This document shows positions 2,634 through 24,574 of a DNA stretch of 32,000 bases, one piece after another. Made by a program: the position numbers and the translations under genes. This DNA comes from Nitrososphaerota archaeon (GTDB taxonomy: Archaea > Thermoproteota > Nitrososphaeria > Nitrososphaerales > Nitrosopumilaceae): contig JAGWFS010000002.1 of NCBI GenBank assembly GCA_028867785.1, positions 116,678 through 148,677 on the forward strand, written 5' to 3'. Every line of letters starts with the position of its first letter. Position 1 is the first letter of the stretch. The notes beneath the pieces are model-generated. The model was not told the origin of the DNA, did no database searches, and was given only the letters and a program-made list of their open reading frames with translations.

Positions 2634-2695
2634 CAATCTTATAGGCAGTATTTTCTAACAAATCATAACGTTTCACATAACGTAGTTGTCGGGAT

Positions 2696-2738: not shown

Positions 2739-2786
2739 CATGTTATTGTCGTAAAACTTTAGAAGATTAGAAAATAATCAAATTCA

Positions 2787-3695
2787 ATGAATGCCATAAT
2801 GGTGGTTGGAATGGGTTTTCTGATAGTATTATCTTGTTCCAATATTGTTTTTGCACAAAGAATTATCGCAAATCCCAACATTACCGTCAAGACCGACAAA
2901 TCATCATATATCTTTGGAGATACGATTGTGATTTCTGGCACTGTTAAAACTGTTCTAGAGGGGGACACTATAACCATCCAAATTTTAGATCCTTACAGTA
3001 ATTTAATCCGGGCATCACAGGCTAATGTTGCTCAAGATGGCACTTACACAGGCTCGGTGGAGATAACCGGTTCTGAGTGGAAATCAAGCGGTGTTTATAC
3101 CGTTCTAATTCAATATGGTTCTGAAGTTCAAACCCAAACAACTTTTGCGTTTACGGCAACAACTATTCCCATCAATGGTATATTCCAAGTTCAAATTCCA
3201 AATAACCCCCAGATCTTTAATGTGCCATATACTATTTTTGGAGGATCGGTGACGAACATGTCTGTTAATATCTTGGATCCTTCTCTGACTGTATCTTTAC
3301 TATCAGTTAATTACGGCGCAATCGCACTCTCACTCCAACGGTCTTTACTTGATGCAAAGACAAGTAATGATACCGACGAGCCGTTTACTATCTTAATCGA
3401 TGGTACCGAGATTACACCACAAAAAGAACAGGTGACTTCAAATGATAGAACTTTGACAATACAGTTCCTGCAAGGAGACAAAAATATACAAATTATCGGT
3501 ACCAGTGTAGCATCCCAAAATAATTCTACTATTAATACAAGTACAAATGTGACCACAAATCAGCGACTATCTGCGCAGACTACTAACATGTCAAAACCTA
3601 TTCCGGCAGTACCTGAATTTCCCATTAGCGCATTTGTTCTTTTAATTTCCATTTCGTTCCTAATTCTAATGACGAGATCTACTCCGAAATTCTAA
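2787..3695 (+). CDS. Secreted surface protein with a PEFG-CTERM-like archaeosortase sorting signal
   Basis: It has an N-terminal signal/TM segment (MNAIMVVGMGFLIVLSCSNIVFA) and a Ser/Thr/Asn-rich linker. The C-terminus is AVPEFP followed by a hydrophobic helix (ISAFVLLISISFLILM) and a basic tail (TRSTPKF). Confidence 0.75.
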   Translation: MNAIMVVGMGFLIVLSCSNIVFAQRIIANPNITVKTDKSSYIFGDTIVISGTVKTVLEGDTITIQILDPYSNLIRASQANVAQDGTYTGSVEITGSEWKSSGVYTVLIQYGSEVQTQTTFAFTATTIPINGIFQVQIPNNPQIFNVPYTIFGGSVTNMSVNILDPSLTVSLLSVNYGAIALSLQRSLLDAKTSNDTDEPFTILIDGTEITPQKEQVTSNDRTLTIQFLQGDKNIQIIGTSVASQNNSTINTSTNVTTNQRLSAQTTNMSKPIPAVPEFPISAFVLLISISFLILMTRSTPKF

Positions 3696-3766
3696 TGACT
3701 CTCAAGGGCAAGAAAAGCCACTATGATGTCAAGCTCTTTCGTGGTTATGTCGTATCAGTAATCTAA
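3695..3766 (+). pseudogene. Copy B of the repeated gene 5' fragment (MTLKGKKSHYDVKLFRGYVVSVI*)
   Basis: The ATG overlaps the upstream stop (TAATG). It aligns codon for codon with copy A and carries an in-frame TAA where copy A has AAA. The downstream sequence is degraded. Confidence 0.4.
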
Positions 3767-4342
3767 TTCAGACAAGAAGAGATTTTGGTTGTCAGAGTTA
3801 AAGTCGTTAAATGATTATTCATTTTGTGATTCTGTATCCATGTCTATTGATCTTGTAGGAAAGTTGGTTTCAAAGGACGAAGTTAAGTTTTATGATGATG
3901 AAAAATATGAACCTGAAAGCGAATTATGATAAATATCATACTTCTGGTTTTTTAGACTTTATTATTTGGAAAACTAATTTTTGTTGGACACATCTGGCTT
4001 TGATAATTCATCAAACAAACGAAATAAAAGAACTAATGATTATGAATTTGGCTTTAGTAATTCTGGAAATAGAAAAAGAAAATCGGATGGATTTAACTCA
4101 ATGTTTGGTATGGGCGAAACTTCGAAATCTAGAAGAAAAAGATCATCTGGTTCTGATTCCGTGTTCGAATTTTAAAGAATCTAAGGAATTAGATTTTCTA
4201 CCAACTGTTGAACGTAAATTTTGGCAATTGTAACTTCTTGACACATTGACATTCCATCCTCTCTTTTCAATCCATGCTTGAACTTGTAGGATCTTTCAGA
4301 CAGAAACTTCCTTTCTAAAACTTCCAAAAACCTTAAATCAAA

Positions 4343-4618
4343 TTGCATGCATATTACAGCGTGTCCACAAAAACAATCGGGATAATAATAGGCGGTTTTG
4401 CCGGAGGAGTCGTTGCAATATCGCTTGTCATGATGGCAGGATCGGGGTGGGAGACACCAGGGCAGTATACTGGAATAAGCAACGCCGCACATGCTACCAG
4501 TGACTCGACACATTGCTATGCGTTTCAGACCGGATGCAGTGTTTCAAATTATGGCAGCACCACAACCGCATCAGACTATGATGGACAAGCTCTAAGCGGC
4601 AGTTATAGCGGGCCGTAG
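4343..4618 (+). CDS. Hypothetical membrane-anchored small protein
   Basis: 91-aa ORF with one clear TM segment (IGIIIGGFAGGVVAISLVMMAG) followed by a Ser/Thr/Gly-rich tail. No family was recognised. Confidence 0.3.
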   Translation: MHAYYSVSTKTIGIIIGGFAGGVVAISLVMMAGSGWETPGQYTGISNAAHATSDSTHCYAFQTGCSVSNYGSTTTASDYDGQALSGSYSGP

Positions 4619-4790
4619 TTTTTACATCCTTTAATCTTTAGGATAGTCTGTCACTTGGAAGTGATCTTTGCTCAATCCAAAGTATTGCGAGAACCGCCGG
4701 ATTTTTGTTTGTGAACTGTTGGTTTAGAAACAGGATTTCTGTTATCAGAAATGCCAATTTTTCTAGTAACAAGAAGACTGTGGCAATCTC

Positions 4791-4868
4791 ATGACTAGAA
4801 GGAAAACAAAATCATTTCAACATAAAATTTCTAAAGGGATCTTTTTTCCAGCTTTAAATTTCAAATAA
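4791..4868 (+). pseudogene. Copy C of the repeated gene 5' fragment (most degraded)
   Basis: There is DNA-level similarity to copy A: aaggaaaacaaaatcatttcaacataaaatttctaaagg versus aaggaaaaaataatcactacaacataaaattcctcaaagg. It starts with ATGACT like copy B. Confidence 0.3.
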
Positions 4869-4973
4869 AACATCAATAACTGGCGCGTCTCCTGCTTATC
4901 AGCTAACATTATGATAAATCAGCTTTAATGTTGAATTTGAGTAATTAAGTAACTCCACTATAGTTGGTTTATC

Positions 4974-5228
4974 ATGTCACAAAAAATGGTGCAGCCTATT
5001 CAAACGGCATTTGTAATGGTCAACTGCGAATATGGGCATGAAAGCGGTGTAATTGAGCAGTTAAGAACCATTGAAGGGGTCAAAGAGACTATCAGAACGA
5101 GCGGGCCCTATGACATACTTTGTAATATTGAAGTATCGACAGTGGAGTCCCTAAAAGAGGTCATTGAGCAAAAAATTCGCAAGACTCCTCATACGATATC
5201 AACTACCACACTCATCAAGTCGCACTAG
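4974..5228 (+). CDS. Stand-alone Lrp/AsnC-type ligand-binding (RAM) domain protein
   Basis: The 84 aa follow the RAM-domain pattern: AFVMVNCE...VIEQLRTIEGVKETIRTSGPYDILCNIEV...LKEVIEQKIRKTPHTISTTTL. There is no N-terminal HTH. Confidence 0.7.
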   Translation: MSQKMVQPIQTAFVMVNCEYGHESGVIEQLRTIEGVKETIRTSGPYDILCNIEVSTVESLKEVIEQKIRKTPHTISTTTLIKSH

Positions 5229-11805: not shown

Positions 11806-11988
11806 ATGGAACACATGGGTAAAGGAATGAACTACAAAAAGTTTCGAGAGTCGCCAGTGGAATATTACAAATCAAATGAAGGAAGGCTAAGCAGGGCAGA
11901 GGTCATAAAAAAACTAGAATCGTTTATCGTCCAAAAACAGGGCGAAGGCCAGGATTTTTTCAACAAGTACGAGATACAGGAAGAATGA
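11806..11988 (+). CDS. Hypothetical small protein
   Basis: 60-aa charged ORF that is the only ORF in its gap. No family was recognised. Confidence 0.3.
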   Translation: MEHMGKGMNYKKFRESPVEYYKSNEGRLSRAEVIKKLESFIVQKQGEGQDFFNKYEIQEE

Positions 11989-12152
11989 TAGGCTATAATT
12001 TTGCAGGTCTGCCATGAATCTGATATTTCACAATTTTGTCGTTTTACCTGTTCTCCTTGTAAGTTTTTGAATTCTTCTATCGATTGTCTGATGTATAGCT
12101 TGTGGTGATATTTGATGAGATCCTTTAACTAGTAACCGCACCCAGTTGGATC

Positions 12153-12494
12153 ATGGGCCAGAAAGGATCGGGAATTGAGAGGTTTCTTGCTCCATCTGTA
12201 AGTAAAATTGAGGAAGAATTGGGGCTACTCCGCGATGAAATTGAAAAAATGAACGAAAAAATAGACAAGACAGGCAGCAGACTTGCAAGACTGGAAGAGG
12301 ATCATAAGCGTCTCATGACAAAGCTGGACGCGCCAAATGGCTGGCTGCCAACTGAATCCCAGGTTTTGATCACTAGCATAAATGAGATGGAAAAACAGGA
12401 CAGGAATGAGATTGATGCCCTAAAGCGCTTCATGGATGTGGCACAAAGAAGGATTGTCATTTTGGAAGCCAAAATGAAAGAACTTGGCCAATGA
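12153..12494 (+). CDS. Hypothetical coiled-coil protein
   Basis: The 113 aa have heptad-like, charged, helix-forming sequence at both ends (EEELGLLRDEIEKMNEKIDK...; ...RRIVILEAKMKELGQ). Confidence 0.5.
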   Translation: MGQKGSGIERFLAPSVSKIEEELGLLRDEIEKMNEKIDKTGSRLARLEEDHKRLMTKLDAPNGWLPTESQVLITSINEMEKQDRNEIDALKRFMDVAQRRIVILEAKMKELGQ

Positions 12495-12625
12495 ACTGGT
12501 CAAAAACATCTTTTTCAACACTGCAGTCTTTTCATCATGGTTGTGTTTTTCTTCCGCTTAACTGTTTTACATAGAATAGATCCAACAGATTGCTAGGTGA
12601 TAAAAAACCAATTTGATATTTAGAA

Positions 12626-12647
12626 CCTGCCTAACATTGTTAATCCA
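12626..12647 (+). promoter_or_regulatory. Shared promoter-proximal motif, copy 1 (cctgcctaac-att-gttaatcca)
   Basis: 19 of 22 positions are identical to 12923-12944. It contains the palindromic core TAAC-N3-GTTA, is followed directly by a TATA-like aatataataaa, and ends 53 nt before the ATG at 12701. Confidence 0.5.
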
Positions 12648-12700
12648 AATATAATAAAGTGAATTAGAAAGTTAATCTCAAGAAATTGTTTAATCGGGCA

Positions 12701-12826
12701 ATGGGCGAGGCAGTGGTCAGTGTCTTTGTCTATATTGGAATAGGATCGGGAATATTGCTAGTGGGTGCAATTGGATTATTTCTACTTGGGGATGAAATCC
12801 GTAAGATTTCCAGGTTTAGAATTTGA
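12701..12826 (+). CDS. Tiny membrane protein (41 aa)
   Basis: An ORF not in the track: MGEAVVSVFVYIGIGSGILLVGAIGLFLLGDEIRKISRFRI. It has one TM helix, a motif plus TATA upstream, and shares Y-x-GIG with the 12987 product. Confidence 0.35.
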   Translation: MGEAVVSVFVYIGIGSGILLVGAIGLFLLGDEIRKISRFRI

Positions 12827-12922
12827 TTCATGATTGTGACAAACACGTCAGTTGAATCTTACTGCAAGTCATATCATCTGTCTGTCATGATGCGCAGCCT
12901 GCTGTCATGACAATATAAAATT

Positions 12923-12944
12923 CCTGCCTAACTCGGTTAATCCA
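12923..12944 (+). promoter_or_regulatory. Shared promoter-proximal motif, copy 2 (cctgcctaac-tcg-gttaatcca)
   Basis: See copy 1. It is followed by the TATA-like ttaatagaaa and ends 42 nt before the ATG at 12987. Confidence 0.5.
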
Positions 12945-12986
12945 GCCTTAATAGAAATCATGTAGTAATCACTGTGAAGATTCTAC

Positions 12987-13184
12987 ATGAACAAGGCGAC
13001 GTACTATGCGGGAATTGGAATTGCATCAGCTGCATTTCTGTTTCTCATCTTTACAGAAATGAAATGGCACGCGGAGCCAGGCGTTGTTGGCGGCTTGATT
13101 GCTGCTGTAATAGTGGGCGGATGCATCCTCATGGCCTTTTCAGATAAAATTGAAAAAACAGACAAGATGAGCAAGACTTACTGA
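12987..13184 (+). CDS. Small membrane protein (65 aa, 2 TM), convergent with amoA
   Basis: It has two hydrophobic helices (YYAGIGIASAAFLFLIF; VVGGLIAAVIVGGCILMAF) and the conserved upstream motif. Confidence 0.5.
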   Translation: MNKATYYAGIGIASAAFLFLIFTEMKWHAEPGVVGGLIAAVIVGGCILMAFSDKIEKTDKMSKTY

Positions 13185-13262
13185 CGCGTATAGGTTGCAT
13201 CATTGCGGATGGCGAATTACGGGATGTTATTCAGATCTGAAAATCGTTGTAAAAAGAGTTTT

Positions 13263-13300
13263 TTCGTGACTTTGCTTCATTTCACGGAAAAGAAAAGGGA
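13263..13300. terminator. Intergenic hairpin and T-tracts between convergent genes (amoA 3' end)
   Basis: The plus strand reads ttttcgtga...tcacggaaaag (cgtga/tcacg stem with flanking T/A runs). On the minus strand, directly after the amoA stop, the sequence is cccttttcttttcc, which resembles an archaeal oligo-T terminator. Confidence 0.4.
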
Positions 13301-13302
13301 GG

Positions 13303-13953
13303 TTAGTCCCACTTGGACCAAGCGGCCATCCACCTATAAGTCCAGGTTGTAAGTTTGCAACCTAGTGCGGTTATAGGCACAGTCAGGACCGCTCCAGCGC
13401 CTGCAGCAAGAGCCACAGGACTGTCATAGAACTTGCCTACCTGCGGTTCTATTGGGGTCATGTATGGTGGAAGTGTTGTTCTTGGATATTTGAAAGCAGT
13501 CTCCAACGGATCATTTATTGTCAGTAAATTGAGCATGTTGAACATTGGCAGAGACATTCCACACAGCACGCCGCCTACCAAGATCAACATGTGCTTGTTT
13601 CTCTTGGTTGCCCAATATGCAAGATCCATCAGTATGGCTGACGGTATGAATATTGGTACGACGATGAAGCTGTACGGATATCCTAGGGAGAACCACGCAC
13701 CTTTTGCAATCCATATGTACACTGTCATTATCAGCGCATAGTAGGTTGCCGTTCCTGGCACGCCAGTGAACGTAAGGTAGTATGCTGCACCGACGGCGAG
13801 CATCGTTGACTGGCCTATGGAGAAAATCACAAACGATGTCCAGGCCCAGTCGGTGTAGAACTCATAGTCTCCCGTGTTGATTGTCAACAAGGTTGAGTTG
13901 ACTGCTACAACTACTATGAATAAGTAGTGTGTGCATCTTCGTAACCAGACCAT
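13303..13953 (-). CDS. amoA: Ammonia monooxygenase subunit A (archaeal type)
   Basis: The 216 aa are near-collinear with archaeal AmoA as I know it: MVWLRRCTHYLFIVVVAVNSTLLTIN.GDY.FYTDWAWTSF...FTGVPGTATYY...AKGAWF.LGYPY.FIVVP...YWATKRNKH...MFNM.NLL...DPLE.AFKYPR.TLPPYMTPIEPQVGKFY.SPVAL..GAGAVL.VPI.ALG.KL.TWTYRWMAA. Confidence 0.97.
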   Translation of the reverse strand: MVWLRRCTHYLFIVVVAVNSTLLTINTGDYEFYTDWAWTSFVIFSIGQSTMLAVGAAYYLTFTGVPGTATYYALIMTVYIWIAKGAWFSLGYPYSFIVVPIFIPSAILMDLAYWATKRNKHMLILVGGVLCGMSLPMFNMLNLLTINDPLETAFKYPRTTLPPYMTPIEPQVGKFYDSPVALAAGAGAVLTVPITALGCKLTTWTYRWMAAWSKWD

Positions 13954-13974
13954 TTGATTTCCAATTGTGTTGTG

Positions 13975-13987
13975 ATTTTATTTAAAA
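13975..13987 (-). promoter_or_regulatory. Putative amoA TATA box
   Basis: The minus strand reads ttttaaataaaat, 22-34 nt upstream of the amoA ATG. This implies a leaderless or very short-leader mRNA. Confidence 0.5.
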
Positions 13988-14217
13988 CCTGACAGTCAAC
14001 CATTAAATGTCATCATGACACAATAAAGAACAATCTGCGGAGTTGACTGTGAATTACTTCATAATTCCAGCGTCTCAGCCAGACAAAACTCCGTAGATTA
14101 ATTATTGAAAAATTGTGCTACGATGAGTTACATTTAATTTCATTGTATTTCATGCAGCCCAAATGACAACAGCAAAAAATTTTAAAAAATATTGTGCATG
14201 ATCATATTTAAGAAAAG

Positions 14218-14232
14218 ATTAACTATGTTAAT
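14218..14232 (+). promoter_or_regulatory. Shared promoter-proximal motif, copy 3 (attaac-tat-gttaat, perfect palindrome)
   Basis: It has the same TAAC-N3-GTTAAT core as copies 1 and 2. It is followed by the TATA-like aaaataaata and ends 46 nt before the ATG at 14279. Confidence 0.4.
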
Positions 14233-14278
14233 CAGAAAATAAATAGTAACTAGCAAAAAAATTAAGCCTAGATACCTG

Positions 14279-14485
14279 ATGGAATTTCAATTATTAAATA
14301 TTAAAAAGATAAACAAATGGATCTTCATCCCGATTATTCTTGCCATCTTGGGCTCTACATCATTTGAAGCAACAAGGATCCACGACTCGGAGTTGTTCAT
14401 TGCTTCCGTAACTATGCTTGCACTTGTGTGCTGGATAACATTTGTTAGTTTGTGTGTAGCGGGTGTTGGAAGAATTCTAAAGTAG
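14279..14485 (+). CDS. Small membrane protein (68 aa, 2 TM), divergent from amoA
   Basis: It has two hydrophobic helices (WIFIPIILAILGSTSF; VTMLALVCWITFVSLCVAGV) and the upstream motif. Confidence 0.45.
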   Translation: MEFQLLNIKKINKWIFIPIILAILGSTSFEATRIHDSELFIASVTMLALVCWITFVSLCVAGVGRILK

Positions 14486-14633
14486 ACTCAAAAACGCTTG
14501 CAATTGATTGCTGGCAGAATTAGAACCGACTCGACACAGAACAATATTGCGTTCAAATGAAAACAATTGATATCAAAATACATTCCGTGCTTTATAATGG
14601 ATATAATAATGACCTTGCCCAATCCATAATATA

Positions 14634-15029
14634 GTGAAAAGCAAGATATCTGACATTCTTGCGATTGTTGCCATGGCCCTCCTGGTTACTTATATTGCAG
14701 ACGCAGCGGTGGGACAGGGAAAGGCGGGATTTCTACCTATGAGCGCAGAGCAGAGGGGAATGATATTTGGTATGACGTCCATTGTTCTGTTCTTTGCATC
14801 GTTTGGAACCGGATTTGGCCAAATGTCAAAACTTGCAACATTCCTTCTGATTGCAGGAGGCGCCCTGATGGGGACTTCCGTACTGGGGGCTACCGCAATG
14901 GGACATGGCGGACTTGCACACATCTCTGCATCGTTTGCAGGAATAATAGTAATAGGATATGTCATAATGGGGCTTGGAATATTCAAGCTGATCTACAAGA
15001 ACAGGACTGCCCAGAAGAACATTCACTAG
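14634..15029 (+). CDS. Hypothetical integral membrane protein (about 4 TM, Gly-rich)
   Basis: The 131 aa (GTG start in the track; an alternative ATG lies at 14673) contain four hydrophobic, Gly-rich segments. No family was recognised. Confidence 0.55.
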   Translation: MKSKISDILAIVAMALLVTYIADAAVGQGKAGFLPMSAEQRGMIFGMTSIVLFFASFGTGFGQMSKLATFLLIAGGALMGTSVLGATAMGHGGLAHISASFAGIIVIGYVIMGLGIFKLIYKNRTAQKNIH

Positions 15030-15188
15030 ATCTTTCCTTGTATGAATAGACAAGACAAAAGAAGATCGAATCACAACCCATTTGGGTTGATGGGAAACAG
15101 TCAGGCCTAAAATGATTTAAAAATTGGGTAACATTGGTTCACAAATATTAAATTTGTAATGCGGACTGGTGTATTGTGAGAGACTGCC

Positions 15189-16523
15189 ATGTCAGGCGGA
15201 TCAACAAGCGGTAAAAATGTGAAGAAAGGATTTACAAAAAAGAACACTGTCGTGTTTGCAACAGTGGTTACTGTCTCCATTGTGTCAATATTCTATTTGC
15301 TGTCGCCTTGTGCCGTAATGCCATGCGTATCTGCAGTCAACATCATACACAGTGCGTCTGCCCAAAGGCAAAACCAGCTTGTTGATTCCAACGGCCAATC
15401 ATCGTCGCAGCAACCCCGGCTTACCCTTCCACAGCTCTATAAACAGACCCAAGACTCGGTGGTGGAGATACAAAGCACGGCTGCAAACCCTGACTCTTAT
15501 ATTATAATAAACGGTGTGCCATCCAACGAAAATACCACCATGCTTGGCTCGGGATTTTTTTATGATGATAGCGGCCGCATAGTTACAAATGCGCATGTGG
15601 TAGGAGAGGATCATGTGGTACATGTAACCCTCACTGACGGCAATATCTATACAGCAAAAGTAGTTGGAAAAGACCCGTACAATGATCTAGCCGTGGTGCA
15701 GATAATTGATAATTTTACCGGTGAAAAAATAATACCATTGCAGCTCGGAGACTCTTCCCACCTTGAGGTAGGGCAGTCTGTAGCCGCAATAGGCAATCCG
15801 TTTGGTCTTGAGGATACCATTACTAGCGGCATCATATCGCAGCTTGGCCGGTCTCTTGTTGACGAGGAAACGGGCAGATTTTCCATTCCTGATGTCATTC
15901 AAACCAGCGCTGCAATAAACCCGGGAAACTCTGGCGGACCGCTTCTTAACATGTTCGGTCAGGTAATAGGGATGAACACTGCAATAAAGACTGATACGGG
16001 CAACTTTGCAGGAATAGGGTATGCGATTCCGTCAAACCAGATTGCCAGGATAGTGCCAATCCTCATAAAGGACGGAACGTACAAGCATCCCTGGCTGGGT
16101 ATTGTGGGAAGAAGCCTGACGCCGGATATTGCCCTTGTAAACGGGCTTGCAAGAAACTTCAAGGGTGTTGTAGTAGAGAAGGTTTCAACAGACAGCTCTG
16201 CCTCCAAGGCAGGTCTTGAAGCTGCGACTGATGATCAGGACGGCATGCCACATGGAGGGGACATAATAGTCTCAGTTGACAGGCATCCAGTCAAGTCTGT
16301 TTATGACATCCTGAGTTATCTGGATGATAACAAATCCGTAGGGGATACAATGATTCTTGGAATAGACAGGGACGGCAAGATGATTGACGTAACTATGACA
16401 TTACAGGCAAGACCTCCTCCTGTGTCGCCTACTCCTCCAACCCCAACATCAAGCCCTGATTTTCCACAAATCCCAAGCTTTCCACAGATTCCAGGGTTTC
16501 CACAAATTCCGAACTTTCCATAA
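15189..16523 (+). CDS. htrA: HtrA/DegP-family serine protease (trypsin-like domain plus PDZ), membrane anchored
   Basis: It has an N-terminal TM anchor and catalytic-triad contexts TNAHVV, DLAVVQI and GNSGGPLLN. A PDZ-like region (WLGIVGRSL...GDIIVSVD) follows, then a Pro-rich C-terminal tail. Confidence 0.9.
   Translation: MSGGSTSGKNVKKGFTKKNTVVFATVVTVSIVSIFYLLSPCAVMPCVSAVNIIHSASAQRQNQLVDSNGQSSSQQPRLTLPQLYKQTQDSVVEIQSTAANPDSYIIINGVPSNENTTMLGSGFFYDDSGRIVTNAHVVGEDHVVHVTLTDGNIYTAKVVGKDPYNDLAVVQIIDNFTGEKIIPLQLGDSSHLEVGQSVAAIGNPFGLEDTITSGIISQLGRSLVDEETGRFSIPDVIQTSAAINPGNSGGPLLNMFGQVIGMNTAIKTDTGNFAGIGYAIPSNQIARIVPILIKDGTYKHPWLGIVGRSLTPDIALVNGLARNFKGVVVEKVSTDSSASKAGLEAATDDQDGMPHGGDIIVSVDRHPVKSVYDILSYLDDNKSVGDTMILGIDRDGKMIDVTMTLQARPPPVSPTPPTPTSSPDFPQIPSFPQIPGFPQIPNFP
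16461..16520 (+). repeat. 18-bp tandem repeat, 3.3 copies, coding for (FPQIPx)3FP at the HtrA C-terminus
   Basis: The units are tttccacaaatcccaagc, tttccacagattccaggg, tttccacaaattccgaac and a partial tttcca. Confidence 0.9.
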
Positions 16524-16588
16524 ATCAAAGGATTGACTGGATTATGACGGTAAAGAGAACGGCGTGGAAAGTTTGGCATCTTTTCTTA

Positions 16589-16974
16589 TCAGATGAGAAA
16601 ATTCATCATAAGGAATTTCTCGCGGTGGTTTTGTCCTTTCGACTGCCGATTTGACATCTTTTTCATATGTTTCAACAATCTCCCTATCAATTCTTCAAGT
16701 ATCTTGGTTAAGTAATGTTGTATTAGGAATTTGGCTTCAATTTTGTGTCTTTCAAACACTTGAAGGTTTTTGTGCCAATTGTACCAATTCATAGTCCAGT
16801 CTTTTTTATCAAAATCTATCGCTTGTTAGATAATTTTCTCCAAATACCAAACAAATCTTCTATAGGCATGGATTTCTTCTTTTTGTAAAATTCTATATGA
16901 TCATCCATCGTTTTTCTTGTCAGTTCATAGAGATCTTTGTATTCTTCAAACATCGAGTCATTTCTCTTATCCAT
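16589..16974 (-). pseudogene. Hypothetical gene split by one frameshift
   Basis: A 52-aa ORF (16816-16974, MDKRNDSMFEEYKDLYELTRK...) is followed by the 67-aa ORF (16589-16792). The latter's frame stays open upstream to 16825 (QAIDFDKKDWT-MNWYNWHK...), so a single indel would join them. Confidence 0.3.
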
Positions 16975-17112
16975 TAAATTAAATCATAACTTATTTTTTA
17001 ATAATTAGGACTATTAAACCTCTGTCAATCCATATATTTCCCATATTTATGGCATATATTATTGCTATAAAATACTAAATATTAATATATTAGTCTATAT
17101 TATACTATATGT

Positions 17113-17673
17113 ATGAATAACGAACCGAACACAATTTCAACAGCAACCCTTGTGTGGCTGGCAACAGCTCTCTTACATAAAGAGAGGAAAGAAGCTGAAG
17201 CATTTGAGTCAAGTGAGATTTTTGAGAAGGTAAAGAGTCTGGATCTATCGTCAGTATCTGACTCGACAATAAAAATGCACATTTCATTACACTGCGTTTC
17301 AAATGCACAATCTCAGCCAGACACCCACAAAAAACTCTTCAGAATCGCAAGGGGATGGTACAGACTTTACAGAGAGGGAGATCTATTTCACCCAAGCAGA
17401 GCACAGGGGAGAGTTCTACCTATAGCCGAAGAATTGCCATCAAAATACAGGCATCTGATTGAATGGTACAATGATGATTATTCAAAAAAACAAACTCAAC
17501 CAGCCCAGCCTAACAATGCAATATTTGTAAATATTGAAAATAATAAAACAATAATGCTACCAAATGAAATTGCCGAGTTTTTGCAGGTAGAGGACGGGGA
17601 TTATATTGCATTTATTACAAAATCAACAGATGAAGTTGTAATCAAAAAGGCCAGAATGAAGCTAGAAATATGA
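17113..17673 (+). CDS. DNA-binding protein: unknown N-terminal domain fused to a C-terminal SpoVT/AbrB-like domain
   Basis: The C-terminus IMLPNEIAEFLQVEDGDYIAFITKSTDEVVIKKA fits the AbrB swapped-hairpin pattern. The N-terminal ~120 aa (..LFRIARGWYRLY..) suggest a winged-helix-like module, which is unverified. Confidence 0.55.
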   Translation: MNNEPNTISTATLVWLATALLHKERKEAEAFESSEIFEKVKSLDLSSVSDSTIKMHISLHCVSNAQSQPDTHKKLFRIARGWYRLYREGDLFHPSRAQGRVLPIAEELPSKYRHLIEWYNDDYSKKQTQPAQPNNAIFVNIENNKTIMLPNEIAEFLQVEDGDYIAFITKSTDEVVIKKARMKLEI

Positions 17674-18256
17674 AATGAAGCAATATGATGGATAACATGG
17701 CAGAGGACTCGATACAATATCTTTTACAACCAATGTCCTGATAAATGGGAATAGACAAGAAAGAAAAGCTTTTGTTTTACATTTTTTCTGTAAGGTTATG
17801 ACAGCTCAATCGGTGGCCTCGCTTAGCTTTTCGGATGCCCAATGAGCTTGTGAGCATTTAATAGATGATATCTACGAATTTGTTGATTCGATCAATATTG
17901 TATTCCCAGGTCATGGCTATGACGTATTGGCGCGGCTCATTTGGTATCTATGAAAGCAAGTATATTAGCTGCACATGGTCCTTTCATCCAAAGTTATGTT
18001 TGTGAGACATTCATTGGTGAATTTCTTCATACTTTCACTCATATTGTGTATCCAGATTTCTTGTATGGATTTTTTGTGTTGTTGACGATATCAGGTTTGT
18101 AGACCTTCTCGGCTCAATCTTGTGGTTCGATTTCTTCAGAGTAGAATCTTCTGTCGTCTATCTTTCCTTCTTTTCTGCGCTTTTCAATTTCTGGAGAAAT
18201 CCAGATGCTCATTATGGAATTTAAAAAATTCTTGGTCCCTTCTTCATCTAACGACA

Positions 18257-18550
18257 TTATTCTTCTCTCAAGTTGTTTTCAATGTACTCAATAATTTCAC
18301 TTTTCATTCTGGGATTCAGCGACGCCGTGGTGTTCCCTTTGTGCAAAATCAGAAATCCCTCATTTGCGAGCTCCTTTACTTTTTTCTTGACGTTCTTTCC
18401 GTTGTTCCTTACCACCTGTCCAAGCCAGTTTGCCATGGTATCGATAGGAAAATAGTGCTCTCCCCACCTTCCCTTACGCATGATGAAGTTGAGAATGAGG
18501 GCCCTGAGTTCAGGGTCTTGGTAGTCTCTTTTCATAAGTACACTTAACAT
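18257..18550 (-). CDS. Putative winged-helix DNA-binding protein
   Basis: The 97 aa (probable start at MKRDYQ...) contain ...VKKKVKELANEGFLILHKGNTTASLNP, which resembles a recognition helix plus wing. It is divergent from 18598-18960. Confidence 0.45.
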   Translation of the reverse strand: MLSVLMKRDYQDPELRALILNFIMRKGRWGEHYFPIDTMANWLGQVVRNNGKNVKKKVKELANEGFLILHKGNTTASLNPRMKSEIIEYIENNLREE

Positions 18551-18597
18551 ACCTTTAGAAGTCTAGATTTAAATACTTTTGAAATGGTAGTAGTAGT

Positions 18598-18960
18598 ATG
18601 GATAGCACCGGGGGTAGTAGGGGGGGCAGCGAATACGCGTCACTGATAACAAAAGTTCTAGGCTATTCCCCAAAGATGAAGATCCTCGATTATCTTCTAG
18701 ATTTCCCAACAAACGATTTCACAAAGAAAGAGATCATAGATGCACTGGGGATGAGCAAGCAGACCTTCTACAAGTACTTTGACGACCTGGAGGATGTTGG
18801 AATTGTAAAGGTCAACAGAACAATTGGAAAGGCAAGGCTCTACATGGTTAACCGTGGCAATCCTGTTGTCAAAGATCTGGCGAATCTGGAAAGAAAAATA
18901 TCCATGCAAATAGCTGACGCAGAAGAAGAAAAGCTCGGCAAACCAATCCCTGCAAAATAA
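18598..18960 (+). CDS. Winged-helix transcriptional regulator (ArsR/TrmB-like pattern)
   Basis: KILDYLLDFPTNDFTKKEIIDALGMSKQTFYKYFDDLEDVGIVKVNRTIGKARLYMVN follows an HTH-plus-wing pattern. The size and context are typical of archaeal mobile-element regulators. Confidence 0.65.
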   Translation: MDSTGGSRGGSEYASLITKVLGYSPKMKILDYLLDFPTNDFTKKEIIDALGMSKQTFYKYFDDLEDVGIVKVNRTIGKARLYMVNRGNPVVKDLANLERKISMQIADAEEEKLGKPIPAK

Positions 18961-19024
18961 TCATGTGATCAAAGAGATGGATATCTGATCAACCTTTTAA
19001 CTCTGCCACGCACATTGGAAGATA

Positions 19025-19294
19025 ATGGTTAAAACAAAATCAATCGAAGAATCTGTAGAAAACTACGTTGGCAGCATATCAGTTGGCATGCTCAAGTACA
19101 AAAAACACCTAATGCGCGATAAAAATTTCAGCGAAGCCGATGCCATTGATAAGACATTAGAATATGGCATGGGGATGCTAAGATCTGGTTTAGGCGGTAC
19201 TATCACACCGCAGCGAGCAGCAGCATTGTTTAGAGAACAGGCCGACATTAACACTGCACTTGCAAACATATGTGAAAAGGAAGAACATTCTTAA
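19025..19294 (+). CDS. Hypothetical protein (89 aa)
   Basis: An ORF of ordinary composition immediately upstream of the ATP-grasp gene. No family was recognised. Confidence 0.4.
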   Translation: MVKTKSIEESVENYVGSISVGMLKYKKHLMRDKNFSEADAIDKTLEYGMGMLRSGLGGTITPQRAAALFREQADINTALANICEKEEHS

Positions 19295-19377
19295 TTAATA
19301 TCAAAAAATAAGACTGTTCATTGATTGAACACCGTAAAAGAATTGGAAGAACTATAGAAAAAACTATTCGTAGACAA

Positions 19378-20372
19378 ATGCATGACACGCTTACAATAGG
19401 AATCACTTTTGACACTAGGAAAGATTTCAAATTCGAACATGATGATCCATGGGACTGGGATATTGAACTCCAGGTTTCAATGTCGGTCGATGACATCTCA
19501 AGAGCACTAGAGGATCTGGGCCACAAGACAGTTTTGATTGGAAGCGGTACCACTCTAGTAGATAATTTCTCAAAACACAAAAATGAAGTTGATCTCGTTT
19601 TCAACATCGCGGAAGGAAGATTTGGAGGGGTAGGGAAGGGCAGGTACCTGCATTGCTTGAGATGGCAGGCATTCCATTTGTCGGTTCTGATTCATATGCT
19701 ACATCAGTTGCCATGAATAAATGGCATACAAAAGTAATTGGGCAAACTTATGGAATACGTACCGCACCGTTTACCGTCATAGAAAACACGGGTTTCATAA
19801 AAAAAGAAAACATCCAAAAATATCCTGTGATTGCAAAGCTTTGCTATGAAGGCAGCAGCATGGGATTGGACGAAAAATCAAAGGTTTACGATTTTAATAG
19901 TCTGCAGAAACAAGTCAAGTATCTTCTTAGAACATACAAGCAGCCTGTCTTGGTAGAGGAATTCATAACGGGAACCGAGATTGACGTGCCAATCATAGGA
20001 AATAGACCAGAGACAGTCTTTGGCATCGTTGGCATCTCTCTTGATAACAAAGAGATGGGAGACCGTCATCTCACATCAAAGATAGTATATGATGACAAGT
20101 ATTGTTTTCATTATCCAATGAACGCCTCTTTTGAAACGGAGGCAAGTCAAATGTCTCTAAAAATGTACGATATTTTGGGATGCAGGGATTTTGGTAGGAT
20201 GGATATGAGAATCAATTCCAATGGGGAGCCATATCTTCTTGAAGCACATGCACTTCCATATATCGGAAAACATAGCAGCTTTAATCACATAGCAGAAAAA
20301 AATGGAATGAAGTACAGGGACATGATTGGTATGATTCTTGACAATGCAATTGCCAGATACGGTTTTAATTAA
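19378..20372 (+). pseudogene. D-alanine--D-alanine-ligase-like ATP-grasp enzyme, interrupted by one frameshift
   Basis: The Ddl-like N-domain (..VDLVFNIAEGRFGG) is in frame 1. The continuation (REGQVPALLEMAGIPFVGSDSYATSVAMNKWHTK...PVIAKLCYEGSSMG...VLVEEFITGTEIDV) is in the frame of ORF 19653-20372. The switch lies at the G4 run 19627-19630, and adding one G restores FGGGREGQVPALLEM. Confidence 0.7.
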
Positions 20373-22903
20373 TCCCAGAGGTGTATGTCACATGTATAGT
20401 AATCCAGTTCATAGAACCATTTTTGTAACCTCTCAGTTTTGAAAATCTCTGAACTTTTCCTGGCGATTTCAGCAGATTCCTTGCCGAAACCTTTTCTGTC
20501 CAGTATTTTTGATAATAGTCGGTATCTCTTTGCAAGGATCAGTTCATCATCGTATTTGTAGTTGTGCGGTTTGAACTTCTCTAGCCACACCTGTGCCTCA
20601 TCAAACTCGCCTAGCTCGTAATGTATGGCTGCTCGGTTTAATCCATAGTAGTCATTCATCAGGCCTTCTGGATATGACAGAACCAAAGGTTCAAGATGTA
20701 TTATTACTTTTCTTGCTCTTTCTACATCGCCCGTCTGTCTTAACACATTTGCAATGTTCATGTTGACAAATATTTCGTTAAACAGTTCGCTGACATTGGC
20801 GTTTGCATCCTCAAAAAACTGCAAAGCCTTGACATAGTCATCCCTCTGTTGGTAGACCAGACCTAAGTTGTTGAGAGGTATGTCTACCTCCGGTGAATCC
20901 AAGCTTCTGAAGATCTCAAGGCTTGAACCAAGGTACTTTTCAGCATCGTCAAACTTTGCAATGTAAAAGCTCTCTGCGCCCATGTTGTTAAGACACCTTG
21001 CTTTTTCTATCTTCATTGAATATCTTTCAAATGAATCAAGTGCGTTTTTCATGAACTCTATCGCTCTTCTAGATTCGTAAATGATACCAGACTTTCTCTG
21101 CAGCTTGGCCAGTCCTATTGCATCGTTTGCCAAGTTGAAATTAATCTGACTCTTTCCAAACGCATCTGCGGCCTTTTCTCTGTGGCCAAAATGATCATAA
21201 ACCGTGGTAAGAAAAGAATAGGCCTCTCCCAATTTGTTTACATTTCCAATTTTTTCATAAATTCTCAAACTCTCCTCTAACGAAAAAATTGCTTTTTTTC
21301 CTGCATCGCCTGTTCCTTCGTATCTCCAGCATCTTCCCAAAAGCAGATTTGCTTCTGCCTTTTGTATCTCTGACAAATTAGATGTCTGAAGCAAATTATT
21401 GAGGTTTATAATGCATGATGACGTGTTGTTATTGCCAAGCAACGATCTTGCATATCCAATCTTGAGCAAGATGTGCGCTGACTCTGAAATCTGTACTCTT
21501 TTTTCCTTTATCAATTGAAAACATTCTTCGTATTGTTTTACGGAATTTGAAAAAAAGTAGTTATCAAATGACGTTTCTGCTGACAGTTCTAGATACTTTA
21601 GTGCTTTCTCCCACTCGCGACCATTGTAGTAATGATACGACGTGATAAAGGGATCTTTGTGTTTGCCAAAGTTGTTTTCTAGGAATTTTGCAATCTCTCT
21701 GTGGCATTCAACTGCAAGCGTGCCAAGCCCTGAATAGATCGTCTCCTGCGTCTTTCTGTGGTCAAAAACAAAAGTTGTACTGTCTCCTACTCTCTTTACT
21801 ATGGAATAGATATTCTCTAGGTCCTCAAGCATGTGAAAGATCTCCATCTTGTCTTTTCTCATAAAGTTGCTTATCGTATCCAGATCAAATTGATATCCAA
21901 GCACAGATGCATATGCAAGAAGGTCTCTTGCGCCTGGCAAGTCTCTGTAAACCTTCCCTAAGCGCTTGCAAATTGTCTCAGACAAGTTTTCTGGTAGTAC
22001 GTTTTCATTTAACAAATCAGAAATTACCCAATAACCATTATTGTCAATAGTTGCTGCTTTTGATTCTCTGAAGAGACCAAGGAGTGATTTCAGGAAAAAT
22101 GGGTTTCCGCTAGTTTGCTTGTACAGCAAATGCACCACATCCTTGCTGAACTTGTGTGGTCCAAGGAAACCCTGTATGAAGTTGGGGTATAGTTTTTCCG
22201 GAACTGCATCCAGTTTTATTATTGCGGATTTCTTACTGTCAAGTTTGGACAGGGTTTCAAAATATTTCCTTGCATCTAATTCCTTTTGGCTTGTAACAAA
22301 TCCTGTCCTGTATGACATGATGAACATCACTTTGTTTGTGACTTTTCTCATTAGATATGACAACAACTCAAGTGAAGTACTGTCAAACCATTGAATATCT
22401 TCTGCATGCAGCACGATTGTTTTCTTTCTTATAATCTTTTGAAATATTGCTAAATAATTAGAAAACGCATAATGGCTATTATCCACGGAATATCTGTCAA
22501 CATCAGACATTCCGCGAATGGTCTTTGTGATTTCCTGCGCTGCACCAACATAAGGTTCCAATGTTGGGACAAGTTTGGCCAAGTTTAGAATTGTATCAAG
22601 CAGGTCTCCCTTGGTAAAATCTCGATAATCTGATAAAAGCACTTTGACCATCTCTAAGAAAGGAAACAGTGGTGATTCTTGCTCCTCGTATCCTTTTGCA
22701 GTGAGTATGATTATGTCATCTGATTTTACTGAAAAAAGAAATTTGTTCACAAGAGAAGTCTTTCCCATTCCTGCTTCTCCTAGGACAAATACAAATTGGC
22801 TCTGTAAGGAATCGTTTACCTTGTAGAAAACCGCATTCAGAGTTTCCAGAACATCTTCTCTATCCAAGAAAAACTCTTGGCTTGTTACCGTTTTTTCCTT
22901 CAT
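20369..22903 (-). CDS. STAND-type NTPase (AAA_16-like P-loop domain) with a long C-terminal TPR array
   Basis: The 844 aa carry Walker A GEAGMGKTS (22754-22780), a Walker B-like TIVLHAEDIQWFD, and the GNPFF motif typical of AAA_16/MalT-like ATPases. The C-terminal ~400 aa are TPR-like repeats. I saw no effector or HTH domain. Confidence 0.85.
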   Translation of the reverse strand: MKEKTVTSQEFFLDREDVLETLNAVFYKVNDSLQSQFVFVLGEAGMGKTSLVNKFLFSVKSDDIIILTAKGYEEQESPLFPFLEMVKVLLSDYRDFTKGDLLDTILNLAKLVPTLEPYVGAAQEITKTIRGMSDVDRYSVDNSHYAFSNYLAIFQKIIRKKTIVLHAEDIQWFDSTSLELLSYLMRKVTNKVMFIMSYRTGFVTSQKELDARKYFETLSKLDSKKSAIIKLDAVPEKLYPNFIQGFLGPHKFSKDVVHLLYKQTSGNPFFLKSLLGLFRESKAATIDNNGYWVISDLLNENVLPENLSETICKRLGKVYRDLPGARDLLAYASVLGYQFDLDTISNFMRKDKMEIFHMLEDLENIYSIVKRVGDSTTFVFDHRKTQETIYSGLGTLAVECHREIAKFLENNFGKHKDPFITSYHYYNGREWEKALKYLELSAETSFDNYFFSNSVKQYEECFQLIKEKRVQISESAHILLKIGYARSLLGNNNTSSCIINLNNLLQTSNLSEIQKAEANLLLGRCWRYEGTGDAGKKAIFSLEESLRIYEKIGNVNKLGEAYSFLTTVYDHFGHREKAADAFGKSQINFNLANDAIGLAKLQRKSGIIYESRRAIEFMKNALDSFERYSMKIEKARCLNNMGAESFYIAKFDDAEKYLGSSLEIFRSLDSPEVDIPLNNLGLVYQQRDDYVKALQFFEDANANVSELFNEIFVNMNIANVLRQTGDVERARKVIIHLEPLVLSYPEGLMNDYYGLNRAAIHYELGEFDEAQVWLEKFKPHNYKYDDELILAKRYRLLSKILDRKGFGKESAEIARKSSEIFKTERLQKWFYELDYYTCDIHLWD

Positions 22904-22979
22904 TGGGTTAAGATTTAAGCTGCTTTAGAACTAATTATGTTTTGATATGAACATAATTTAATGCACATAAGGTGTATTC

Positions 22980-23420
22980 ATGCAACGAGATCATGTTAAG
23001 ATTAAACTTGCCGGTTACAGAGACGCTGAAAGTTTTCTCAGACTTGAGGCAAAGTGCTTTGACATGAAAGCGAACCGTGACACGATATATTTTTGGACGC
23101 CTGCAGTGAGTTACCTTTGGTCATACAAGGCAGAGATGAACGGAAAGATTGTCGGTGGAATAATTGCAACACCCACTAGGGATGGATGTTGGTATATCAA
23201 TTCCTTGTTTGTACACCCAACATATAGAAAGCACGGTATTGCTACTAGGCTAGTTTCAAGAATCATCAAAGTTGCAGGAAAGAAAAAAATCATTCTTGAT
23301 ACTTTTAAGGACAGGCCGTATCTTTTAGAATTCTACGGCAAGCGAGGGTTTAGGATCAAGAAATCGATGAGAAATTACTACAAAGACAACGAAAACCGAT
23401 ATCTCTTGGAGCATGTGTGA
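22980..23420 (+). CDS. GNAT-family N-acetyltransferase (RimI-like size)
   Basis: The 146 aa contain the motif A region INSLFVHPTYRKHGIATRLVSRII and a C-terminal YGKRGFRI. It is divergent from the STAND gene across a 76-bp spacer. Confidence 0.85.
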   Translation: MQRDHVKIKLAGYRDAESFLRLEAKCFDMKANRDTIYFWTPAVSYLWSYKAEMNGKIVGGIIATPTRDGCWYINSLFVHPTYRKHGIATRLVSRIIKVAGKKKIILDTFKDRPYLLEFYGKRGFRIKKSMRNYYKDNENRYLLEHV

Positions 23421-23497
23421 TTTTCTACAATCTGTATTCGAGAAAAGGATTATTCATACTTTACAACCGAATTATTTTATCCTTCCACTAAATGAAA

Positions 23498-23746
23498 TTA
23501 ACCGTTTTTTCTTTTTACAAATAATTTATTTGAAACAAAATATCCCAATTCCCAAACGAGTTTGATCATGTGACAAAAATCTTGCTCTAATTTACGACTA
23601 CTTTTGGTTTCTGTAGGATCGTATGAACACCAAGAGTCTGGCAAAACTTTTTCATCTTTGTCATTTATTGTTGCCTTTGCGGTTATGAATTCCATTCCTG
23701 CATCATCCGATATGTCATATACTTCTTTTTCAAAAGATTCACTCAT
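23498..23746 (-). CDS. Hypothetical protein (possibly the read-through tail of the decayed recombinase locus)
   Basis: This 82-aa ORF is in the same frame as ORF 23813-24106 and separated from it by a single TAG (23810-23812). No family was recognised. Confidence 0.3.
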   Translation of the reverse strand: MSESFEKEVYDISDDAGMEFITAKATINDKDEKVLPDSWCSYDPTETKSSRKLEQDFCHMIKLVWELGYFVSNKLFVKRKNG

Positions 23747-23812
23747 GTCTTTTTTCTTAGTTAAAGAATTATATCCAAATAAAAATCCACTATGCGCAAC
23801 CCTGTTTCGTTT

Positions 23813-24510
23813 CTATCTTGTGTTAAATAGATCAGAAAATCTCTTGTTCTCTTTCAAATCTATTTTCAGTATCTTTTTGTAAACTTTATTCAGATCCTCA
23901 AAATTACCTCTTCCTCTTTCTAATGCAAAACTGATCAGATCTTCTTTTGGAATATCGAATTTCTTGATTTCTCTTCCTTTTATTTTGGTATTTGTTATGT
24001 TTTCTTTAATAGCGATGAAAATAGCTTCACGTAGAAATTCTTCTAATATGCCCCATATGGAGATTTGACACAAATAGTAAAAATTGGGAATGATAACGGC
24101 TGCCATGGTATACGACTTTACTGAAATCTCTTGAGTCGAGCTTCATCCACCTGAAAAATATTTTCAAAATCTTCTTGCGGTCAAATGTCGTGTGGGTCTC
24201 ACGACCTGAATCATCGGAATATAATTCTACAATCTTTGTAACAAGATTATCTACATCTGACTTTGTCACATGTTTCCATTCTACTGGAAGTAATCTGCTC
24301 AATGTCAAAAGAACTTGAAGATGTTTGAGTCTTGTCGCTTTTGTAAGAGACTCCCTTATCATCAGTCTGTCGTACTCTTCGATTATTTTTATTGTGTCTT
24401 CAGATATTTTCTGGTCGTTGCGAATTAGTTTTTTTAATTCCTTCTATTCTCCTGTCATAATCGTAAATGTCGATTTCATTTTTTGTCAATCGAGAAAACT
24501 TTTGTTTCAA
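23813..24510 (-). pseudogene. Tyrosine recombinase (archaeal XerA/integrase-like), decayed and lacking a recognisable catalytic C-terminal half
   Basis: The N-terminal SAM-like domain pattern is ISEDTIKIIEEYDRLMIRESLTKATRLKHLQVLLTLSRLL..WKHVTKSDVDNLVTKI...T..DRKKILKIFFRWMKL. A frameshift lies in the T7/A7 run 24429-24435, and a second frame change lies near 24110. In the core-domain start (ISIWGILEEFL...NTKIKGREIKKFDIP) the expected Arg is not evident, and I found no HxxR or Tyr region. Confidence 0.55.
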
Positions 24511-24574
24511 GTATGCATATTACGTCGAACAGGGCTTTAAAGTGAATTAATGGCGCCAGGTAAGAGTGTTAAGA

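Follow-up and report, generated by a model that had tools for sequence, protein, structure and literature searches.

Genomes of the Nitrosopumilaceae (0.7-4.3 Mb, mostly 1-2 Mb) carry the genes for ammonia monooxygenase (AMO) in the layout amoB / amoC-amoX-amoA. In the 32,000-nucleotide (nt) stretch of DNA analyzed here, which we call the window (G000:C222:116678-148677, on the 388-kb contig C222 of the Nitrosotalea genome G000), an amoA gene stands among small genes for membrane proteins. The locus raises the question of what this amoA is, and whether its small neighbors belong to it. The original prediction, made from the letters of the window, took the gene to be an orphan amoA with no amoB or amoC nearby, invoked the dispersed amo genes of some lineages of ammonia-oxidizing archaea (AOA), and proposed that one or more of four flanking open reading frames (ORFs) may encode homologues of AmoX, AmoY or AmoZ, or else lineage-specific AMO-associated peptides. 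We found that the gene is an additional paralogue, the second amoA of G000 and not its sole copy; we call it amoA2. Judging from the genomic evidence set out below, amoA2 and three of its small neighbors (s46, s65 and s68) probably represent a selected second amoA for an alternative AMO isoform with co-regulated membrane partners, a proposal in which our confidence is somewhat better than even.

amoA2, a second amoA with its own predicted promoter

The gene and the features directly upstream of it are as follows.

13303-13953, minus strand: amoA2, a second, divergent amoA paralogue; full-length ORF of 216 amino acids (aa), PF12942
13954-14098, minus strand: amoA2-specific upstream region
13975-13987, minus strand: TATA-like TTTTAAATAAAAT, 22-34 nt before the amoA2 ATG
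13992-14000/14042-14050: flanking inverted repeat
14033-14051/14085-14098: flanking inverted repeat with arms AATCTGCGGAGTT and AACTCCGTAGATT on either side of GTCTGGCTGAGAC, located between amoA2 and s68

The gene is complete, as had been claimed. With E=2.7e-105 and a score of 350 bits, where the cut-off is 25.6, its product matches the Pfam family PF12942 Archaeal_AmoA; the match spans positions 1-183 of the 183 in the profile. The best PDB matches of its AlphaFold model (predicted local distance difference test score, pLDDT, 66.7) were bacterial AMO (9cl6_B) and particulate methane monooxygenase (pMMO; 7s4h_B), in both cases chain B, AmoA/PmoA, with TM-scores of 0.63-0.64 and a probability of 1.00; by this model AmoA2 has the PmoA/AmoA fold. 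In the PDB copy searched by sequence, amoA2, s65 and s68 matched no archaeal AMO chain. The statement that the window holds neither AmoB nor AmoC also stood. Pfam models and tblastn matched them on other contigs only, with no match in the window or on C222 as a whole, and since amoX, amoC and amoB are all absent from that contig, amoA2 is not at the position of the canonical cluster.

The reading of the gene as a sole copy failed. A canonical amoA is present on contig C261, and the other AMO genes of G000 are distributed as follows.

C261:213817-214467: canonical amoA, adjoined by amoX and then by the amoC C-terminus
C261:214579-214941: canonical amoX, 120 aa
C261, running off the contig end: amoC C-terminus
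C316:69922-70488, minus strand: amoB, near the end of C316
C316:70754-70936, plus strand: amoC N-terminus, at the end of C316
C316:62072-62383: amoZ, found through synteny with two closed genomes of the family
C316:62480-62752: amoY, found through the same synteny

Joined, the ends of C316 and C261 make up the canonical amoB<- ->amoC-amoX-amoA cluster, split at an assembly gap. The cluster is broken between these contigs because a second amoC copy in G000 constitutes a repeat; the ends of this copy lie at C66:2-76 and C272:1-75, each at the start of its contig, and no contig of the assembly contains aa 62-121, the middle of amoC. The amoZ-amoY pair lies ~7 kb from amoB. A dispersed layout of the Nitrososphaeraceae type, our initial assumption, was dropped once the second amoA appeared.

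The two amoA copies of G000 are 92.6% identical in aa and 86.6% in nt sequence. Their homology does not extend upstream of the start codon and stops ~15 nt beyond the stop codon; their flanks are unrelated. The canonical AmoA is 95-96% identical to its same-genus orthologues and AmoA2 89%, with 8-9 substitutions at sites that are invariant in 29 AmoA sequences of the family. Four signature changes relative to the canonical gene (A27T/S, I31E/D, Y41F and S47G; T27, E31, F41 and G47 in the window copy) sit, in the AlphaFold model, in the loop between the first two transmembrane (TM) helices and at the start of TM2. The I31E/D change is radical and affects a site at which the other sampled members of the family do not vary. 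Every examined amoA2 copy except that of genome G094 has T/S27, E/D31, F41 and G47. The ratio of nonsynonymous to synonymous substitution rates (dN/dS) of amoA2 was 0.084 against the canonical gene, 0.044 against the orthologue in genome G101 and 0.033 against the distant P0003 copy, showing that amoA2 is under strong purifying selection.

A by-eye alignment of the upstream regions of 11 outside-cluster amoA copies showed the pattern ..TCTGGCTAAGAC..CAGTCAACTCCGCAGATTG..TTTTAAATAAAATC..ATG to be common to 11 of the 11 copies examined. The window copy is typical in this respect; its TTTTAAATAAAATC lies 22-34 nt ahead of the ATG. The canonical amoA has a conserved upstream region of its own (..CATAAAATTTTATATACATCAC..), which is unrelated to that of amoA2 and not present at the window gene. 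G094 is a closed genome of 2.0 Mb whose two amoA copies are separated by 402 kb, and in this it agrees with what is described for Ca. Nitrosotalea okcheonensis CS; its second copy keeps the distal part of the amoA2 upstream region and has a degenerate TATA box, which fits the published non-transcription of the second N. okcheonensis copy (PMC5767755). We conclude that amoA2 has its own conserved predicted promoter. In G240/P0006, amoA2 appears joined to the opposite arm of the 14033-14098 repeat, as if the repeat were an inversion point.

The coding sequences have exchanged segments. Between the amoA2 of G101 and the canonical gene of G000, identity is 96-99% in windows spanning nt 180-405 and ~80% at the ends, and a sliding window showed the 5' 135 nt of the canonical G000 gene to be 93-98% identical to G010. 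In a tree of the 5' 180 nt, 11 of 11 amoA2 copies fall in one clade (Shimodaira-Hasegawa-like approximate likelihood ratio test, SH-aLRT, 99) that also holds four canonical copies, which on this placement were probably converted. In trees of the middle and 3' partitions, the amoA2 copies of G123 and G000/G101 are placed next to the canonical amoA of the respective genome, and the other amoA2 copies stay on their own branches. Because the partitions differ through gene conversion, the full-length amoA tree interleaves amoA2 and canonical copies. These alignments and trees show the amoA2 copies to be mosaics, formed through repeated gene conversion with the canonical gene. The simplest reading would be a single old duplication followed by recurrent conversion in both directions; a possible alternative would be that amoA was duplicated several times independently, into a promoter context that already existed.

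Among 63 Nitrosotalea species genomes surveyed, at least eight carry an amoA outside the cluster. Six hold two full-length amoA genes (G000, G094, G123, G240, G275 and G338), and in G230 and G296 (=G101, GCA_028867735.1) only an outside-cluster copy was found. Neither of the latter assemblies yielded a complete canonical cluster: that of G101 is without amoX and amoB, and in G230, where no canonical cluster turned up, the only amoC stands without a neighboring amoX or amoA. Metagenome contigs with an amoA but without amoX, amoC or amoB alongside are represented by P0001, P0003, P0005, P0006 and the contigs with P0052. At least 24 contigs carry the P0003 amoA, and a 65-kb contig carries that of P0006; the amoA adjacent to P0052 occurs on 12 contigs, of which the largest belongs to the 0.2-1 Mb class. 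A second amoC is not distributed in step with amoA2: G123, G275, G094 and G230 have one amoC, and G280, G225 and G358 have two and no amoA2. We dropped, as our main explanation, the idea of a full second set of AMO genes that includes amoA2, as the second amoC does not co-occur with it.

Small membrane-protein genes and their shared upstream element

Three small genes accompany amoA2, each with a related element upstream.

12701-12826, plus strand: s46, 41 aa, single TM segment; an alternative TTG start at 12686 gives 46 aa
12987-13184, plus strand: s65, 65 aa, two TM segments; convergent with amoA2
14279-14485, plus strand: s68, 68-aa membrane protein; divergent from amoA2
12626-12656, plus strand: CCTGCCTAAC-N3-GTTAATCC plus AT-rich box, 31-nt direct repeat D1, upstream of s46
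12923-12953, plus strand: second copy of the D1 repeat, upstream of s65 and just downstream of TATAAAAT (12914-21)
14216-14234, plus strand: palindrome TTAAC-TAT-GTTAA, upstream of s68; forms inverted-repeat pair I1 with 12660-12678

All four small ORFs of the original prediction are present where it had placed them, the fourth being the 131-aa gene s131 described further below. Kyte-Doolittle profiles agreed with the predicted TM counts for the 41-aa ORF (one), the 65-aa ORF (two) and the 131-aa ORF (four); for the 68-aa ORF, which had been given two, they showed one clear TM segment plus a shorter N-terminal hydrophobic stretch (one to two TM). The Y-x-G-I-G motif reported in s46 and s65 was confirmed and is kept in the homologues of both, and despite this common motif hhalign did not show the two families to be homologous.

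Genome G338 has exactly the arrangement of the window, s46 -> s65 -> <- amoA2 s68 ->. In G101 the amoA2-s68 segment (13287-14530) is inverted relative to the window, with no convincing inverted repeat found at the borders of the inversion. Homologues of s46 occupy the same locus in G101/L056-L057 (93% identity over the 46-aa reading) and G338 (62%), stand beside amoA2 in G230 and in the P0003 and P0052 contigs, and lie 7-9 kb from amoA2 in G123 and G240. The gene occurs together with s65 in G101, G338, G230, P0003 and P0052; in L102, a 46-aa ORF just upstream of s65 resembles s46 by position and size alone. Homologues of s65 are convergent with amoA2 at a distance of 100-140 nt in G338, G230 and the P0001, P0003 and P0052 contigs, and others adjoin amoA2 in G101 and lie 2.4 kb from it in G123. 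Within the genus, s65 is present in 7 of the 63 genomes, with amoA2 nearby in five of the seven; it had no match in 100 family genomes sampled across genera, and a profile search of 1.84 billion proteins returned only six representatives of its family. Homologues of s68 are divergent from amoA2 in G101 (76%) and G338 and lie 5.5 kb away in G123.

The three genes thus recur beside amoA2 in several Nitrosotalea lineages, and these are lineages with saturated synonymous sites. Their dN/dS values (s65 0.15-0.23; s46 0.09-0.17; s68 0.18) are low at a synonymous divergence (dS) of 0.7-1.8, and we therefore regard all three as real genes. The suggestion of lineage-specific AMO-associated peptides accordingly gained genomic support for the 41-, 65- and 68-aa genes, through recurrence, selection and motif, and none for the 131-aa gene.

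The elements upstream of the small genes share the form TAAC-N3-GTTAA. The longer string TAAC-N3-GTTAAT has eight occurrences on both strands of the 2.5-Mb genome, three of them in this 1.6 kb. The palindromic copy in front of s68 fits the motif when read from either strand and is retained in G101. The element upstream of s46 is kept in G101 and the P0003 contigs; that upstream of s65 homologues is kept in G101, P0001 and P0003, next to the TATAAAAT box, with one to two changes in the P0003 and L058 copies. This distribution suggests that one regulator may act on s46, s65 and s68 through a shared putative operator-like element.

We then compared the small proteins with the known small AMO subunits. 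Neither Pfam nor NCBIfam has a model for AmoX, AmoY or AmoZ, and scans with both gave nothing usable for the small ORFs or for true AmoX. With hhalign, the s46, s65 and s68 families reached probabilities of 0.1-18% overall: 0.3-0.6% against AmoX for s65, s46 and s68, 0.1-1.7% against AmoY (~90 aa, ..GPNYDPLFYDVM..), and at best 18.4% against AmoZ (~103 aa: signal/TM, helical pair, C-terminal TM), where the second TM segment of s65 aligned with an AmoZ TM only. The s65 hidden Markov model matched the AmoZ of G143 at E=0.054, below any threshold and confined to a Gly-rich helix. The small ORFs had no tblastn matches in the flanks of 29 amoA loci of the family, which argues that they are not AmoX, and the large profile search returned no AmoX/Y/Z-like protein. 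By these comparisons s46, s65 and s68 are not detectably homologous to AmoX, AmoY or AmoZ. The suggestion of AmoX, AmoY or AmoZ homologues in the original prediction fails on a second ground as well: the real amoX (C261), amoY and amoZ (C316) of this genome map elsewhere.

Setting of the module

The module lies within a larger block, next to a gene that does not belong to it.

14634-15029, plus strand: s131, 131 aa, four TM segments (Kyte-Doolittle); a neighbor outside the module
11990-24570: extra block, absent from the syntenic site in the same-genus genomes G010 and G058; amoA2 module plus ~10 kb of further genes

s131 is a diverged paralogue of a ~130-aa family with four TM segments found in 90 of 100 Nitrosopumilaceae genomes. 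In the genomes for which the two positions were compared, this family does not adjoin amoA; the closest relatives of s131 (57-61%) are in other genera, and the gene is absent from the orthologous locus of G101. By these comparisons s131 is not part of the amoA2 module.

In G010 and G058, a 60-aa ORF (window 11806-11988) directly abuts a SNF2 helicase gene (window 24575-27562). In G101, the amoA2 module alone stands between these two genes and 14530-24558 is missing. This ~10-kb stretch, absent from the closest relative, encodes s131, an HtrA-like protease, DUF7669, a MarR-like protein, a D-Ala-D-Ala-ligase-like ATP-grasp protein, an AAA-TPR protein and a GNAT; a distant site in G010 matches its ligase/AAA-TPR part at 71% identity, and the whole looks like a mosaic of relocated or transferred genes. 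The SNF2-family helicase gene (24575-27562, minus strand) has an intein insert at ~25880-27151 with a LAGLIDADG endonuclease domain (Pfam Intein_splicing and LAGLIDADG_3), and the orthologues of G101, G010 and G058 align across the gap without an intein. At window 2001-5000, directly after the gene for elongation factor 2 (EF-2), GC content is low (33-37%; genome ~42%) and many ORFs are without a Pfam match. No tRNA or Rfam family was found in the window.

Several features elsewhere in G000 touch the AMO genes. A Dam-type DNA methyltransferase gene (C261:212217-213676) lies directly downstream of the canonical amoA and at the same position in 11 other Nitrosotalea genomes, all of one subclade, which makes it a handy marker for the canonical locus; an AbiTii-like gene then follows it in G000 and G102. 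Within C272:144102-145310 there is an AmoZ-like paralogue of ~105 aa, 43% identical to the G020 AmoZ used as query, and on the opposite strand a 261-aa ORF whose C-terminal part is AmoZ-like and whose N-terminal part resembles, by eye, a DNA-binding (helix-turn-helix) domain. AmoB-like ORFs, 37-40% identical to the cupredoxin part of AmoB, lie at C111:83525-83941, C316:10219-10539 and C317:952-1257, and G101:C234 also holds such AmoB-like sequence. Of the 15 G000 contigs that exceed 50 kb, one correlates with the genome mean in tetranucleotide composition at only 0.49 (others ~0.97) and may be foreign or mis-binned DNA; it is none of C222, C261, C316, C272, C66 and C111 (0.93-0.98).

The proposed isoform, its rivals and known systems

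On the isoform proposal, AmoA2 would be an alternative A subunit, expressed from its own promoter under particular conditions, and would replace AmoA in a fraction of AMO complexes to give an AMO isoform. It would assemble with the single AmoB, AmoX, AmoY and AmoZ and with an AmoC, since no extra copies of these are linked to amoA2 and the second amoC does not track it. s46, s65 and s68 would be co-regulated through the TAAC-N3-GTTAA site, and the mini-proteins would serve as membrane partners specific to the isoform, whether in the role of assembly factors or of additional helices; by analogy, this would parallel the lineage-specific AmoE subunit of the N. maritimus enzyme. A bolder version, which we regard as unlikely though well short of negligible, is a condition-specific AMO isoform module in which a dedicated regulator would act at TAAC-N3-GTTAA and at the amoA2 inverted repeats and the enzyme would have altered properties.

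Several observations weigh against the isoform proposal. The only amoA2-type copy tested experimentally, that of N. okcheonensis, is silent (PMC5767755), and gene conversion alone can keep a redundant copy intact. The association is also incomplete in both directions. G094, G275 and the P0005 contig have amoA2 and no small genes in the stretches examined, and G240/P0006 has only an s46 homologue, 9 kb from amoA2. Conversely, G225, G255 and contigs L058 and L102 carry s65 without an adjacent amoA, and G077, which has no amoA2, carries an s68 homologue (50%). The signature residues also occur in the 5' part of the canonical copies of G102, G225, G270 and G153, and are therefore not exclusive to outside-cluster copies. 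Finally, the module-bearing genomes are related, so counts of co-occurrence overstate independence.

The most probable rival explanation is one that we doubt but take seriously: amoA2 would be a functionally redundant duplicate kept intact mainly through recurrent conversion from the canonical gene, and the small ORFs unrelated membrane-protein neighbors that share the locus by descent. The conversion tracts are clear, the second N. okcheonensis copy is 95.5% identical in nt sequence to its canonical gene and silent, several amoA2 copies have an incomplete set of the small genes or none, and s65/s46 pairs without amoA2 occur. A redundant copy sits poorly, however, with signature residues and an amoA2 promoter that persist across lineages with dS>1 despite conversion elsewhere in the gene, or with dN/dS of 0.03-0.05 between the amoA2 copies themselves. 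Nor would it account for an s65 that is convergent with amoA2 at 100-140 nt in at least four different wider contexts, or for an upstream motif that s46, s65 and s68 share and that is otherwise rare in the genome.

A second rival holds that AmoA2 and the mini-proteins form a separate copper membrane monooxygenase-like enzyme for another substrate, maybe with the AmoB-like and AmoZ-like paralogues and the second amoC. G000 does encode AmoB-like ORFs (37-40% identity), AmoZ paralogues and a second amoC, and the radical I31E/D change affects a site that is otherwise invariant. We nevertheless consider this reading quite improbable: AmoA2 and canonical AmoA still share ~90% identity and exchange sequence, the second amoC and amoA2 do not co-occur across the genus, and no AmoB-like, AmoZ-like or amoC paralogue is linked to amoA2.

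It is very improbable that amoA2 is an artefact of assembly or binning in which two strains were merged. The assembly is 2.55 Mb in 327 contigs, larger than most Nitrosotalea genomes, and the canonical cluster lies at contig ends; the second amoC copy explains those breaks, however, and contamination is 1.08%. amoA2 stands mid-way on a 388-kb contig that also carries EF-2 and single-copy core genes and that matches the genome mean in composition (tetranucleotide correlation 0.98 for C222, C261 and C316), the flanks of the two copies are unrelated, and six genomes of the genus hold both copies, including the closed G094, in which both were verified by PCR. A last reading, that the window amoA is the only copy, separated from amoB and amoC as in Nitrososphaeraceae, and that the small ORFs include AmoX, AmoY or AmoZ, has in its favor a window without amoB or amoC and flanking genes for small TM proteins, but with a canonical cluster containing amoX, and amoZ-amoY, elsewhere in the genome and hhalign probabilities of at most 18% it is hardly credible.

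The second amoA has a close known counterpart. Ca. Nitrosotalea okcheonensis CS carries a second amoA, NCS_11033, far from its amoA-X-C-B cluster, which is not transcribed and was treated as unique to that strain (Herbold et al. 2017, PMC5767755). As with the window gene, the additional copy stands well away from the cluster of a Nitrosotalea genome, and since the second copy of G094 shares the distal amoA2 upstream region, the two appear to descend from the same ancestral locus. They differ in several respects. The N. okcheonensis copy is 95.5% identical in nt sequence to its canonical gene, the window copy 86.6%; it has only S27 of the signature, without E/D31, F41 and G47, whereas the window copy has the full set; its TATA box is degenerate, whereas the TATA region of the window copy is intact and conserved; and it has no s46, s65 or s68 within 20 kb, whereas the window copy has all three. 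Where a second copy had been described for one strain (PMC5767755), we find an outside-cluster amoA in at least 8 of 63 species genomes.

For the small genes, the nearest likenesses are subunits of AMO itself. AmoX, AmoY and AmoZ are small, mostly helical membrane subunits encoded near amo genes (Hodgskiss et al. 2023, PMC10030591), and the cryo-electron microscopy structure of the N. maritimus enzyme contains AmoE, reported to be specific to marine lineages, and AmoH, to which no sequence was assigned (bioRxiv 10.64898/2026.08.31.748207). Like these, s46, s65 and s68 encode small membrane proteins near an amo gene, and AmoE is likewise lineage-specific; unlike AmoX, AmoY and AmoZ, to which they have no detectable homology, they are known from genes alone.

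Duplicated copper membrane monooxygenase genes within one genome are familiar from bacteria. Ammonia-oxidizing bacteria (AOB) have multi-copy amoCAB operons homogenized by gene conversion, and methanotrophs have pMMO isozymes (pmoCAB1/pmoCAB2 and pxmABC) that have diverged and differ in kinetics. In both groups whole operons are duplicated; here it is the A subunit alone, with its own promoter and with unrelated small partner genes. Extra amoC copies outside the cluster are common and well documented in both AOA and AOB, and to our knowledge extra amoA copies in AOA are not well documented. An extra amoC is, like amoA2, a single subunit gene duplicated away from the cluster, and G000 has one too, but the two do not co-occur across the genus. 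In the literature we found no description of a conserved amoA2 clade, its promoter, signature residues, conversion dynamics or companion genes. What is new here is the conserved amoA2 module; what was already known is one second amoA, in N. okcheonensis CS.

These findings bear on amoA-based ecology as well as on the enzyme. amoA is the standard marker for counting and classifying AOA and is treated as single-copy. A diverged, recombining second amoA in a sizeable fraction of Nitrosotalea, the main AOA of acid soils, would inflate counts by quantitative PCR, create chimeric 'operational taxonomic units' and distort amoA phylogenies. The subunit composition of AMO, of interest to AOA specialists, is a timely question, as the archaeal enzyme was recently shown to hold lineage-specific small subunits and subunits without an assigned sequence. 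The independent promoter, the selection, the change of I31 to E/D and the conserved mini-protein companions point to archaeal AMO isoforms. If the bolder, condition-specific version were true, the module would be the first archaeal AMO isozyme system, and the switch between isoforms would alter, for example, substrate affinity, pH behavior or inhibitor sensitivity in the acidophilic Nitrosotalea.

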